A stretch of DNA of 64,000 bases from Clarias gariepinus (taxonomy: Eukaryota). Under the pieces are notes generated by a model that was given only the letters and a program-made list of their open reading frames with translations, was not told the origin of the DNA and made no database searches. The DNA is taken from the NCBI RefSeq assembly GCF_024256425.1, contig NC_071110.1, positions 2,444,274-2,508,273 of the forward strand, in the 5' to 3' direction. This document shows positions 41,631 to 48,380 of this stretch, piece after piece. Numbering within the stretch: the first letter of the stretch is position 1; the number at the start of each line of letters is the position of its first letter. Made by a program: the position numbers and the translations under genes.

Positions 41631-42196
41631 TTACATAATAGATAATTCATCACTATTGTCTACATTTAATTCTGGATCACATAAATTTATAGTTGGGTAA
41701 AAATAACATATCCTGAACCCAGCGTACAGCGGCTGAGTGAATGTGGTGTGGACACTGTGGAGGAGACTCATCGTGTCAGAGACGCTGTAAAAGGCCAGAG
41801 TTCCTGCACTATGATCCACATACACTCCTATTCTGGACGGTAATGGACATTGGAGTTTTATTTCAGTGTTGTTGTGCCAGAAAGATACAGACTTAAGGTA
41901 ACACTGCAGATTCCAGGAATGACTGTTGCGTCCAAACACACCCTCGTCACCCTCTCCTTTCCTGCTGATCTCTTTATATGAGACTGATACGTTCACACCC
42001 ATACCCTTACACTCTACCTCCCAGTAACAGCGTCCACACACACTCTCTCGACACAACACCTGAGGCGAGGAGTCAAATCTCTCTGGATGCTGACAGTATT
42101 GATGTGCTTCCCTACTGCGTGTCACTGCTCTGCTCCTCTCAGACAGAATGAGCTGATCGTGTGCTGTGTTGGGATCCAAAGTCAGATAACGAAAAT
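41631..42196 (-). CDS. B30.2 (PRY/SPRY) domain exon, finTRIM-like, full-length open
   Basis: Acceptor tgtttcag| on the minus strand. Encodes DFRYLTLDPNTAHDQLILSE...HPERFDSSPQVLCRESVCGRCYWEVEC...RIGVYVDHSAGTLAFYSVSDTMSLLHSVHTTFTQPLYAGF...NLCDPE, the canonical PRY/SPRY motifs. Confidence 0.75.
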
Positions 42197-44338
42197 CTGA
42201 AACAATAAAAATATCCACAGGCTAGATATTAATCACAAGTTTATAATAAAGTGCCTTACAATTTATTCAAGTTTCTTAAAAGTCACTACATTCATCTGAA
42301 TTACAAATTATACATGTAATGCTTTTATACTTTAATTTTTTACTTTTTCCATCAAAATCTATTATTTTTTGGCAAAACCTGAAAAAATGCTGTTTACATA
42401 ACTATTTAAGTTCTTCAGCTGGGTACTATATGGAGCTATTATTTGCAGCTTTAACAGCTTTAGATCTGCTGCGGTAAGATACCCCGAAGTCAAAATGATC
42501 AGATAGTCCCTGATGAGAAAGCTGAGGATGAGGGTGGCAAGGAAAAACTCCCTAAGATAGCAACAGTTTTGCGGTGGCCGCAAGTATGGTTCATCATGAT
42601 ACACCGCAAGTTTTGGCACTGTGATTAGGTTTCCATCTTTCCACGCGTCGGTCCTCGCATAGTCAAACTGAATAAGAAAAATAGAGGTATAACAGCAGGG
42701 GGCAAGTTATCGGAGGCGGGGCTTGTAGGACAACTTTTACACACACTAATGGATTGGGAATGACTGCTCTCTGACTCACAGATTACATAAATTGTCTGAT
42801 CAACGGATTACATTTTTGAAAAAATAACTAAAAAACTGAGTACTTAAATGGTGGACCTAAAGCGTTAGATTACTCGTTACAAATCAAAAAGTCCTTTGTA
42901 ACATGTTACACCCAACACTGGATAGGACCCACTCATGAAGCAGGTCACACCTTAAAGTTAGTATTATCCTTAAGATTAATTATAGGAAATATAACCATAA
43001 TTCCATAGTCTGAAGCTATCTCAGATCACTTTCTTGTCTCAATTAAAGTGTGTCACAGTAATAATGTACGCACAGCACTGCGCTACAACATTAAACGTAC
43101 AAGCAGGCACTCCGGCAGGACTAACTATGACAGCATAACTAAAAGGGAGGAGCCAGAAGGAAACACAGACATGAGGGCCCCCTGAGATGTAAAGCAACCA
43201 ATCACCTCACCGTCACCAAACCTGAGTGATCAATGAGCGTGAGGAGGACAGCATCCAAACATACAAGTTCACCATAATACTCTACGTCCATGAGTCCCCC
43301 AGATCTGCTCCTTTATCTAAGGCTAATCTATTTATAAAAATGCTTGGCTAAATAAATAGGTTTTTAGCCTGGACTTAAACACTGAGACTGTGTCTGAGGC
43401 CCGAACATCAATTGGAAGACTATTTCATAACTTTGGGGCTTTGTAAGAAAAAGCTCTGCCCCCAGCTGTATTTTTCATAATACGCGGTACTGACAAGCAG
43501 CCTGCATCCTTTGATCGAAGTAGGCGTGGCGAATCGTAAGACACTAGCAGTTCACTCAGATACTGCTGCATGAGATTTTTTAATACCTTATATGGGAAAA
43601 AGTAGTATTTTATAATCTATGCAAAATTACACTGGGCGCCAATGCAGTGTGGGTAAGATAGGGATGATGTGCTCGTATCTTTTGGTTCTAGAGTGGACTC
43701 TCGCTAATGCATTCTGAAGCTACTTTATGCACCTAGTTAAATCAGCTGTTAGGCATTACAATAGTCCAACCTAAAGGTGATAAAAGGATAAGAATTTTTT
43801 TTTCTACATCCTTTAGTGGCATTATATTCTTAATTTTTGCAATATTTCTGAGATCAAATAATGCTATCCTGGTAATATCATCTACATGACCTTCAAATTA
43901 CAGATTGGAATCTATAAACACACCGAAGTCTTATACTGTTGTATAAGAGTTACTGTGTAATCAAAAATTTACACAGAGTTACTGTGTAATTAAAAAACTT
44001 GTGTTATTTTTTGTTTGCTAGTTAGACCTAATCCTAATTTTAGATTGTGGAAAGTGCTCCCCTCTGATGTTACAGTAGATCTGCATCCTTAGTTCAGGTT
44101 TTTAAATCTCGTGTTAAAACACATTTGTACTCTCTCGCTTTTAATTCTTGACTTTGCCACTGCATGTTATGTATGTTATGTATTTTATTTATTTTATAAT
44201 TTCTTGGATGTTCAGTCCCTTGGTCTACGCACAAAGGGGTATATAAATAAATGAGACTTGAGACTAATCTGAAAAGTTTGTAATATAAATAAATCATTAT
44301 GATATGTTTTTTTCTTGGTGGTGGGGGTCATCTGGTAC

Positions 44339-44340
<2 letters not shown>

Positions 44341-44370
<30 letters not shown>
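44341..44370. repeat. (GT)n microsatellite
   Basis: gtgtgt... run. Confidence 0.9.
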
Positions 44371-44372
<2 letters not shown>

Positions 44373-44694
44373 TTACACCTACACTTCAGAAAATCTTCTC
44401 TGTATTTTGGTTCTAAGGGTAAACCCTTTTGAACTACTGCAGCTGTGGAGACACAAAGACAAAACTTAGACAAATTAAATATGTTTAGAGCCCCATCAAA
44501 AATACTGACAGAAACTGTCTTATCACTATGCAGTCTTTGATTATAAAAATCAGCTAATTCAAAAATGTTAAAACATGTTAATAACTTTAAACACATAACG
44601 ATATGTGTGTTTTTTCACTTTCTGCTAGAATAAAAGTATCAAAAAGCAGGATTATAGCTAAATATAGTTAAATCTAAGTTAAAGTCATCTTCAT

Positions 44695-46116: not shown

Positions 46117-46136
46117 CTGTATAAGGGCACACACAC

Positions 46137-46171
<35 letters not shown>

Positions 46172-46323
46172 GAAAAAAATTAGAGACTCAAAATAATAAG
46201 ATGGAAACAGAGAGAGTGTTTAGGTTTAATAGGTTTTCAGAAAAAAAAGCTTTGTTGGCATTATTTTAAAGTTACAGGAAAAGCAAGAAGAGGAGGGTGT
46301 TTTTATATAAGTTGATTCTCTTA

Positions 46324-46420
46324 CCTTTATGAAGTCCATGGATCGTTTCAGGTCCTGCACACTTTCTCTTTTCTTCTTTATTCTCCGCTCAAATTCCCTT
46401 TGGTTTTTCTCCAGCTCTTT
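46324..46420 (-). CDS. finTRIM-like gene, coiled-coil exon 2 (about 96 nt)
   Basis: Acceptor ttttag| and donor cataaag|gtaaga on the minus strand. Encodes ELEKNQREFERRIKKKRESVQDLKRSMDFIK. Confidence 0.6.
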
Positions 46421-47780
46421 CTAAAAGCAAATAAAATAATTTTAATTATTCCAGTATCAGAATATCAATATTATCAGCAAATAAAAAAAGGATCCACTCA
46501 TGTTCTAGGTAACTTTAAATGTCATTACCTGTTAAAGGTTTACCTAAAGCTCTCTACAGTATGTGTACTGTGCAAAAGTCTTGAGCCACCCATCTCACCC
46601 ACTGACTCATCATCTATATCGCTTTATCCTGTATTCAGGGTTGCGGGGGGCCTGGAGTCTATCCCAGGAGACTTGGGGGACAAGGCGGGGTACAACCTGG
46701 ACAGGGTGCCAATCCATCACAGGGCACACACACCTACACACACACTCATTTACACACTATGGCCAATTTTGAAATGGACAATTGGCCTAACAATTGGCCT
46801 CTTTGGACTTTGGGAGAAAACCTTTGGACCTGGAGGAAACCCACCAAGCAGGGGGAAAACATGCAATTGCACACAGAGACTGTAATCTAACCTACCCGGG
46901 AAAGCCACCCATCTATTTATATTAAATGTAATTAAATAAATGTAGACTAAATTAAAGAAATAGAAAAGAAAAAAATTCTACTGTAACAGACTGCAAAGTG
47001 CCCACAGTATACACAATATACAGTGGAACCATGGATTCATAAGTGTAAAACATGAATTTGAAACATAATTAGTTCCAGAAGCAGGCTCGTATGTCAAAAC
47101 ATTTGTAAACCAAAGCAAATTCCCCATACAAAATAATTGAAACCCAAATTATTAGTTATAAGTTATTATTATTAGTTCTTCCAAACCGTAGTCCAATGCC
47201 TTAACCACTGAGCTACCCCTGGCTCTCAGTTTTGGTTTTGTTTGTATGTGTTGTCTGGGAGAAATAACAATGTTACTACTTTTACAATACATTAAAATAG
47301 ACCAGAATTATTCACCAGGCGTAAAAATCTTATCTTTTACCTACATGAGTTACAAAACAAATGATATTTATAAGAAAGACCACACCCATAGCTGAGTTTT
47401 TATTTAAACTAACTTATCTAAAAATGAATCTCCATGTTTCTTTCACTACCACTCAGAACGTTTTGACATGACTCAGCTTTGCACCAACCACATCAATCGT
47501 GAACCGTTATGTTCATACTATACATTTTCCCAACTGTTTTTTAAGATTAATTAAAATGTATTGGAGCAATTCGGTTTCAAATGAGAAGGCAAATATTATA
47601 CCCAAGCAGCACAGCAACAAAAACTAATCAAAGTACACTGACTGCTCTGACCTATTTCATACTTTCTGACCAACAAACCTGTTCTAACAAAAATTCCCCT
47701 TACAGTGAGTGACTAAAAAAGAAACTACTATATCATTTGTATATACTTACTTTAAAAAAGTATAATGACCAAGTTCTCAC

Positions 47781-48380
47781 CTCTTTTTCAGTTCTTTCTA
47801 CTTCAGCTAAAACTGTATTGTGGCCTTTGTGTTCAAACATTGTACATAAATAGCAGATGAAGCTTTGGTCAGTACGACAGTAGATCTCAATCAGTTTGTC
47901 ATGCTGAGAACAGAACTTCTCTTGGAGATCTCCACAGGCTTCCACTAACTTGTGCTTCTTAAAGGCAGGAAACTCATAGTGACGTTTAAGATGATCTTCA
48001 CAATAGGAGGCCGGACACCCCAGACAGGACTTGACGGCTTTGCGTTTTCTCCCAGTGCAGGAATCACACTCCACATCTCCAGGTCCAGCGTAGCAGTGAG
48101 CAGGAGAAGCAGGCTGGAGTTCAGTCTTCATCAGTTTCTCCACCACTTCAGCCAGAATGTTGTTCCTATGTAGAACAGGCCTTGGAATAAAAGTCTCTCT
48201 ACACTGAGGACAGCTGTAGACACCCTTCACATCCTCCTGATCCCAGCAGCCATTAATACACACCTTACAGTAACTGTGACCACAGGAATTAGTCACTGGT
48301 TCTGTCAGGACACCCAGACACACTGGACAGCTGAAGTGATCCGCTGACAGCTTACCTACTAAAATATAGCCCTCTGCCAT
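47781..48380 (-). CDS. finTRIM-like gene exon 1: RING finger (C3HC4) plus B-box zinc-finger region, with start codon
   Basis: MAEGYILVGKLSADHFSCPVCLGVLTEPVTNSCGHSYCKVCINGCWDQEDVKGVYSCPQCRETF... is the typical fish finTRIM RING. ...CDSCTGRKRKAVKSCLGCPASYCEDHLKRHYEFPAFKKHKLVEACGDLQEKFCSQHDKLIEIYCRTDQSFICYLCTMFEHKGH is the B-box. Donor gaaaaagag|gtgaga. Confidence 0.8.

Follow-up and report, generated by a model that had tools for sequence, protein, structure and literature searches.

The window analysed here is a 64,000-nucleotide (nt) stretch of the genome of the African catfish Clarias gariepinus (RefSeq assembly GCF_024256425.1, contig NC_071110.1, positions 2,444,274 to 2,508,273), and its subject is a TRIM gene on the minus strand that contains two B30.2-type exons: a functional distal one and a proximal copy that is very probably a decayed relic. 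All positions below are those of the window; the features are listed in Table 1. The gene is covered by a model of six exons, with coding sizes of 600, 96, 234, 160, 60, and 566 nt and GT-AG ends at every intron, and its product consists of 571 amino acids (aa). This product is identical in 571/571 residues to the RefSeq protein XP_053363464.1, described as [quoted passage not shown] The gene is already known, and RefSeq is judged to model it correctly. Both in the RefSeq protein and in our model, the distal exon (42196-41631) is the sole B30.2 exon used.

Much of this organization had been recognized in a preliminary description of the window. The first exon, with the RING and B-box domains, had been placed exactly (47781-48380), and the coiled-coil exons reported there are found at 46420-46325 and 46116-45883. 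A micro-exon of ~23 nt proposed near 45640 turns out to lie inside the 160-nt exon 4 (45694-45535), and the 60-nt exon 5 (44442-44383) had been missed.

Pfam searches with the 571-aa protein show matches to zf-C3HC4_4 (4.7e-9), zf-B_box (1.3e-9), TRIM_CC (2.6e-44), PRY (6.7e-20), and SPRY (3.2e-9). The AlphaFold (AF2) model of the B30.2 domain is confident, with predicted local distance difference test (pLDDT) values of ~85 to 92, and it superposes on the structures of human TRIM16L (6sjh; template modeling [TM] score 0.94, 1.1 Å) and of the TRIM25 PRY-SPRY domain (4b8e; TM score 0.89). The best solved relative by sequence is TRIM16 (7qs3, E=4.7e-32). Such a set of best PDB matches (TRIM16, TRIM16L, and TRIM25) is expected for genes of the finTRIM (ftr) family.

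In finTRIM genes, the coding exons measure 555-594/96/234/154/60/~545 nt (van der Aa et al. 2009, PMC2657112). The catfish gene shares with this family the RING domain, the two B-boxes, the coiled coil, and the B30.2 domain, as well as the six-exon organization with matching sizes. It differs in the length of exon 4, 160 nt versus the published 154, and in the presence of an extra, apparently decayed B30.2 copy in intron 4, a feature not described in PMC2657112. Also as in finTRIMs, the gene belongs to a multigene cluster with members in one orientation: a second paralogue is found on the same strand in the window (58598-56769), and there are more paralogues elsewhere on the same chromosome. 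The family is rich in pseudogenes and in alleles with frameshifts. Homologues in catfish number in the thousands, under names that vary with the source (TRIM16-like, TRIM25-like, "finTRIM family member 14"), and close homologues from Silurus are called "finTRIM family, member 14" by some sources. The earlier assignment to a finTRIM-like gene stands because the exon sizes match the published layout and because of the naming of the close catfish homologues, and the Pfam domains agree with it. By its predicted domain content, the locus is one C. gariepinus finTRIM-type gene, TRIM16-like in RefSeq, of the RING/B-box/coiled-coil/PRY-SPRY E3-ligase type.

Upstream of this gene, 63 to 76 nt 5' of the ATG, there is a perfect match (AAGAAATTGAAACT) to the consensus of the interferon-stimulated response element (ISRE). 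The 64 kb contain 3 matches to GAAANNGAAAS, a count that is itself not above chance. The motif is a possible interferon-response element, and its position alone is suggestive. It is the one hint of induction of this gene by virus or interferon. A splice-acceptor-like sequence, ctttctctcag, is found directly before the ATG, so the motif could sit either in the promoter or in an intron of the 5' untranslated region.

As the preliminary description had noted, the two B30.2-type exons lie ~3 kb apart, both on the minus strand; the duplicate is real, but the proximal copy starts at 45205 and not at 45195. The alignment of the proximal and distal exons (492/576 columns, E=1e-166) is far beyond chance, and 448/504 of the aligned coding bases are identical (89%). 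Outside the coding part, they share only the last 8 to 12 nt of the acceptor and ~30 to 36 nt past the stop (41603-42176 versus 44667-45206); a duplicated flank of ~150 bp, claimed earlier, is reduced to ~10 nt on the 5' side and 30 to 36 nt on the 3' side. The proximal copy sits between exons 4 and 5, i.e., within intron 4. With exon 5 located downstream of it, the copy is an intronic passenger; it does not form a second terminal exon behind a shared set of upstream exons.

The lesions of the proximal copy are seen directly in the alignment. It is 55 nt shorter in total than the distal exon, and an (AG)n(TG)n tract within it is longer by a 2-nt insertion (CGAGAGAGAGTG versus CGAGAGAGTG). Translation from the acceptor in the phase of the gene gives ...VLCRERVCVDAVTGR and then meets a TAG codon at 45044-45042. 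The statement that all changes keep the reading frame therefore fails, and an acquired stop, which the preliminary description had itself named as the sign of a pure pseudo-exon, is found in this assembly. The three deletions described there exist as net losses of 21, 15, and 21 nt, the first of which removes RYLTLDP. However, the 15-nt gap and the second 21-nt gap are paired out-of-frame deletions (7+8 and 10+11 nt), and the segment between the members of each pair is read in another frame. Downstream of the slip, only a 129-codon open reading frame (ORF) survives in the ORF list, and Pfam shows no match for the surviving 128-aa proximal translation, as opposed to the PRY and SPRY matches of the distal exon. 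A pseudo-exon, or decayed duplicate, is recognized by disabling lesions in a sequence clearly homologous to a functional exon of its gene, and the proximal copy shows both features.

The position of the lost residues within the B30.2 fold was assessed by aligning 54 catfish paralogues and mapping the changes onto the AF2 model, with column conservation taken across 52 catfish paralogues. The first deletion removes R386 to P392, including the LTLDP motif with its invariant L388 and L390. The second removes R473 to S477 and leaves W478 changed to C, at the start of the predicted strand 477-483. The third removes S513 to F519 (SAGTLSF, with the invariant G515 and L517), which form a hairpin and most of the predicted strand 516-521. 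The motifs removed (LTLDP, NSxSW, and SAGTLSFY) belong to the near-invariant core: L388, L390, S477, W478, G515, L517, and Y520, all lost from the proximal copy, are invariant or near-invariant in the catfish paralogues, and the mean conservation is 93% in the deleted columns versus 85% in the whole domain. Two of these deletions had been thought to shorten surface loops. On the model, they fall in strands, not loops, and remove predicted β-strand residues together with near-invariant motifs. In primate TRIM5alpha and TRIM22, functional indels occur in variable loops at the surface of a domain that is itself intact. Those proteins, too, have an antiviral-type TRIM B30.2 domain in which length variation matters, but the catfish proximal copy has lost conserved strands and its frame is broken. 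Substitutions derived in the proximal copy affect columns with at least 90% conservation in 12/19 cases, including W478C, F489L, H491P, D511E, and Y520L, compared with 3/10 of those derived in the distal exon. The latter are mostly at variable positions, e.g., S411/R412/H415 and G466/D467/G469, in line with the diversification reported for the B30.2 loops of finTRIMs, known to be under positive or diversifying selection (PMC2657112).

The combination of a broken frame, a missing structural core, and an intronic position makes it very probable that the proximal copy is a pseudo-exon in intron 4, a relic and not a recognition module. Several observations weigh against this interpretation. The +2 insertion lies in a slippage-prone dinucleotide tract and comes from one assembly; the corresponding locus of the GenBank record GCA_024256435.1 (CM044214.1:2454943-2478171, 23,229 bp) is 100% identical to window positions 58380-35152; it is one and the same sequence and provides no independent check. 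The net length lost is divisible by three at each of the three deletion sites (3/3; chance ~1/27 under neutral indels), and the old frame is open for 129 codons after the +2, as far as the homologous stop codon. Together, the net in-frame deletions and the open old frame weakly suggest that the proximal copy was kept open for a time. There is a small probability of such past retention of an open frame, or of an unshifted allele, and neither would rescue the B30.2 fold. The acceptor of the proximal copy is intact, and an independent GenBank model of the same gene, KAM9469715.1 (376 aa), terminates inside the copy. That model leaves exon 4 early, through a different donor, and ends out of frame in the pseudo-exon (...EEIFEDV/LFQISTQLMTSSFCLRGAEQ, followed by a stop); it is probably a mis-model caused by the pseudo-exon's intact acceptor region. 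In clean columns polarized with the upstream gene, the proximal lineage shows 4 synonymous and 10 nonsynonymous changes, and the distal lineage shows 4 and 9. The ratio of nonsynonymous to synonymous substitution rates (dN/dS), a check proposed in the preliminary description, is 0.85 to 0.99 between the proximal and distal copies, a value that is uninformative in a family which itself evolves with high dN/dS. As estimated from these sequences, the substitutions alone show no relaxed constraint, and dN/dS cannot separate decay from function here.

The duplication is older than the split between this gene and its paralogue XP_053362957.1, another C. gariepinus TRIM16-like protein, encoded on the same chromosome outside the window. 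This follows from the ancestral states retained in the proximal copy and from the presence of its 21-nt-deleted 5' end in the paralogue. A clade-specific C-terminal extension, CDPELNV..., is common to the proximal copy and to the distal exons of both genes and is not found in a third paralogue, P0170. At ~10 positions, the proximal copy keeps the states shared with P0170, and both distal exons have changed together. The XP_053362957.1 protein contains a segment that comes from a proximal copy in which the 21-nt deletion was already present. In the history that we propose, a segment of ~0.55 kb, from ~10 nt 5' of exon 6 to ~30 to 36 nt past its stop, would have been duplicated into intron 4 before the two genes split. 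Afterwards, the LTLDP motif that opens the PRY domain and two strand segments of the SPRY core disappeared from the copy, and slippage added a 2-nt frameshift. A copy decayed in this way cannot encode a B30.2 fold, and we infer that splicing skips it in vivo, so that in the working transcript exons 1 to 5 would be joined to the distal B30.2 exon to give the 571-aa protein.

A 19-nt direct repeat, with one member on each side of the proximal copy, may be a trace of the junction left by the duplication or insertion. Its members stand 52 nt (upstream) and 8 nt (downstream) away from the homologous segment, which does not support a clean target-site duplication. An arrangement of two genes in tandem, the first having the proximal copy as its last exon, was rejected: there are no RING, B-box, or coiled-coil relics at 44695-42196, and that interval contains exon 5 instead, fitting the distal exon in phase and sequence. 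Searches of the literature turned up no account of B30.2 exons duplicated within a finTRIM gene.

Other ways in which the proximal copy could be used have to be weighed against its being a relic. According to the preliminary description, it could be an instance of exon-level diversification or an alternative 3' exon. It would thus be a working, diversified B30.2 exon whose in-frame loop indels alter pathogen recognition, and the +2 would in that case reflect either an error of assembly or a null allele. The net multiples of three, the old frame open to the homologous stop codon, the location of the +2 in the (AG)n(TG)n tract, and the positive selection on finTRIM B30.2 loops (PMC2657112) all agree with that view. 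However, a frame-repaired copy would still be devoid of LTLDP, the invariant SW, and the SAGTLSFY strand and would still carry W478C, F489L, H491P, D511E, and Y520L. Its deletions are in strands, not in variable columns, and it has no Pfam match. Its use would skip exon 5, RefSeq leaves it out, and the RefSeq model of the paralogue XP_053362957.1 uses the first 60 nt only. A working exon of this kind already fails on the conserved core and is barely credible. Almost as improbable is a role of the pseudo-exon as a sequence reservoir, donating tracts by gene conversion to the functional B30.2 exon 3 kb away. Short-tract gene conversion has been proposed to shuffle variants among NLR-B30.2 exons of fish, namely zebrafish (bioRxiv 10.1101/027151), and the proximal and distal copies share mismatch-free runs of ~50 to 87 nt. 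These identical runs, however, coincide with the most conserved coding segments, and the differences are fairly evenly spread, with 88 to 94% identity in four blocks.

The intact acceptor and the compatible phase of exon 4 also make it conceivable that the whole proximal copy serves as an alternative terminal exon, ending at the TAG and yielding a predicted 417-aa RING/B-box/coiled-coil isoform without B30.2. Transcripts with variable C-terminal length, some of them without B30.2, have been described for finTRIMs (short variants of trout and zebrafish; PMC2657112), and KAM9469715.1 ends within the copy. That model, however, uses another frame and another donor and looks like an ab initio artifact. 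No canonical poly(A) signal (AATAAA or ATTAAA) is found between the stop codon of the proximal copy, or its end, and exon 5, such hexamers occurring only within the former coding sequence, and read-through should face competition from the strong GTAAGG donor located 60 nt inside the copy. We consider this isoform unlikely.

A further possibility is compatible with the pseudo-exon interpretation and concerns only the 5' end of the copy. Positions 45205-45146 might be spliced in between exons 4 and 5 as a cassette that preserves the frame, an option that we regard as possible but doubtful. Its product, put forward equally tentatively, would be an isoform of 591 aa whose linker, ahead of the real B30.2 domain, contains 20 additional aa from a PRY fragment (DFNTAHDQLILSERSGAVTR). 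The acceptor of the piece is intact and its donor, GCG/gtaagg, is new, the distal exon having GCA/gtaggg at the same site; neither the exon 4 donor (gtaatg) nor the exon 5 donor (gtaggt) fits the consensus better than gtaagg. The 60 nt run from phase 1 to phase 1 without a stop, and the 7-exon ORF of 591 aa is open. The RefSeq protein XP_053362957.1, also of 591 aa, has the same 20-aa segment between exons 4 and 5, identical in 20/20 residues, the two proteins being 89% identical overall; at that average divergence, however, such identity has a chance of ~0.1. Between the proximal and distal copies, the cassette part shows 3 synonymous and 1 nonsynonymous differences and the remainder shows 4 and 29 (Fisher p=0.016), but no part of the functional exon is more conserved than the N-terminal PRY segment, and the low dN is partly expected. 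Another C. gariepinus model, P0174, also repeats exon 5 and a PRY fragment internally. Against use of the cassette, RefSeq XP_053363464.1, a model of the very same gene, skips it, and the XP_053362957.1 model is a computational prediction.

The paralogue offers the closest comparison for this piece. XP_053362957.1 shares with the studied gene the exon order and the 20-aa DFNTAHDQLILSERSGAVTR, derived from the 5' end of a proximal B30.2 copy with the LTLDP deletion already present, but the 60-nt piece is annotated as coding there, whereas RefSeq skips it in the window gene. Pseudo-exons and exonized fragments of duplicate exons, which are found in eukaryotes generally, present a similar picture: the acceptor of an intronic duplicate survives, its interior decays, and a point mutation supplies a donor (here AGTAGG to GGTAAG), leaving a short cassette in frame. 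The difference is that the exon here is the pathogen-recognition exon of an immune multigene family. B30.2 exons would start in phase 1 and would contain a latent phase-1 donor ~60 to 80 nt in, at ...R-S/Y-S... codons (AGT plus purines). Such a latent donor would pre-adapt stranded copies as frame-preserving cassettes that add a spare first PRY segment to the linker. In a broader and rather speculative version, which we consider improbable, B30.2 exons have repeatedly been duplicated into upstream phase-1 introns in catfish finTRIM clusters, and the 60-nt piece is a real exon, conserved between paralogues, that modifies B30.2 presentation. If true, the cassette product could act as a strand-swap or autoinhibitory pseudo-substrate and would not be debris.

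Frame-preserving loop indels in a spare recognition exon would have given an innate-immune gene a notable route of diversification. The main value of the pseudo-exon interpretation is as a guard against over-reading, since what is found is a frameshifted relic without a structural core, in a correctly modeled gene. It also carries a warning for annotation, as decayed intronic B30.2 copies can seed mis-models, such as KAM9469715.1, which ends inside one. Because partial B30.2 repeats occur inside several catfish TRIM models, the rapid turnover of the family may regularly produce intragenic duplicates of B30.2 exons and, occasionally, an exonized PRY fragment. The finding overall is ordinary, and the possible use of the 60-nt cassette is its one point of interest.

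Table 1. Features of the studied TRIM gene and of the rest of the 64,000-nt window
Feature	Position	Strand	Remarks
Exon 1, coding part	47781-48380	-	600 nt; RING and two B-boxes; donor GAG/gtgaga
Exon 2	46325-46420	-	96 nt; coiled coil
Exon 3	45883-46116	-	234 nt; coiled coil
Exon 4	45535-45694	-	160 nt; linker; phase 1 at end; donor GCG/gtaatg
Exon 5	44383-44442	-	60 nt; encodes AAVVQKGLPLEPKYREDFLK (...EPKYREDFLK); phase 1 at end; 3' of the probable pseudo-exon
Exon 6, functional distal B30.2 (PRY-SPRY)	41631-42196	-	566 nt including stop codon
Proximal B30.2 copy, probable pseudo-exon	44695-45205	-	511 nt, inside intron 4; relative to distal exon, deletions of 21, 7+8, and 10+11 nt and insertion of 2 nt
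Candidate 60-nt cassette exon (5' end of proximal copy)	45146-45205	-	acceptor ttctgtttcag/AT, donor GCG/gtaagg; encodes (D)FNTAHDQLILSERSGAVTR
(AG)n(TG)n tract with 2-nt insertion	45062-45080	-	shifts frame of proximal copy
Premature TAG	45042-45044	-	reached when proximal copy is read in the gene's frame; predicted 417-aa product without B30.2
19-nt direct repeat, upstream member	45258-45276		18/19 identical; AAAAAGCAGGATTRTAGCT on the plus strand; brackets proximal copy
19-nt direct repeat, downstream member	44641-44659		8 nt past end of duplicated segment
KAM9469715.1, extent	48380-45152		positions 10001-13229 of the GCA_024256435.1 locus
ISRE-consensus motif	48443-48456	-	candidate element
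Second finTRIM-type gene	56769-58598	-	exons 2 to 6 look intact; B30.2 ORF 57230-56769
Degenerate B-box relic	59809-59939		upstream of second TRIM gene
Ty3/gypsy-type LTR retrotransposon	50262-54302	-	211-bp direct LTRs (50262-50471, 54092-54302), 97% identical
GC-rich (50-55%) retroelement	12202-16514	-	overlapping ORFs of 917, 517, and 520 aa
Tc1/mariner transposase ORF	3548-4609	+	uninterrupted, 353 aa
Acidic repeat ORF	23371-24099	+	242 aa

The second finTRIM-type gene lacks a RING exon within the window, and the degenerate B-box relic is the only trace found upstream of it. Its GenBank product has 371 aa, with coiled coil, PRY, and SPRY domains. The DNA comprising exon 3, intron 3, and exon 4 is 89 to 93% identical between this gene and the studied one, and the two genes have homologous exons 5 (57502-57424 in this upstream gene). 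Introns 4 and 5 of the second gene are short (~200 and ~130 nt) and contain no B30.2 copy.

Internal B30.2 repeats are found in several TRIM16-like or finTRIM models from catfish, namely, P0174 and P0175 (Clarias), P0171 and P0031 (Silurus), and P0012 (Pangasius). In P0174 (C. gariepinus), exon 5 and a PRY fragment are repeated; P0175 (C. magur) has three PRY halves, and in P0012 (Pangasius djambal) the full B30.2 domain is present twice, in near-identical form. These repeats are either recurrent exon duplications or artifacts of annotation or assembly. At least at the annotation level, intragenic B30.2 duplication seems to recur in catfish clusters.

The rest of the window contains several mobile elements. 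A Ty3/gypsy-type retrotransposon with long terminal repeats (LTRs) lies between the two TRIM genes, ~1.9 kb 5' of the ATG of the studied gene, and encodes reverse transcriptase, RNase H, integrase, and chromodomain ORFs; the GC-rich block at 50 to 54 kb is due to this element. The other retroelement, at 12202-16514, has reverse transcriptase and RNase H domains in its 517-aa ORF; Pfam shows no match for its 917- and 520-aa ORFs, and the element may be DIRS-like. The Tc1/mariner transposase has a Sleeping-Beauty-type helix-turn-helix and a DDE_3 domain. The acidic repeat ORF consists of E/H/Q/D-rich tandem low-complexity units (...EEEEMQEGEEEQDHHHKDKDTEDESGKEQNHDHQ...). Rfam searches show nothing at 40 to 50 kb of the window. 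Sequence resembling interspersed repeats, along with (CA)n microsatellites, occurs in introns 4 and 5 of the studied gene (43425-43571 on the minus strand, 44300-44380, and 46120-46170); one example is an ORF fragment, ...NTAGGRAFSYKAPKL, which is similar to a common teleost repeat. Repeat insertions probably explain the length of intron 5, 2.2 kb here versus ~130 nt in the neighboring paralogue.

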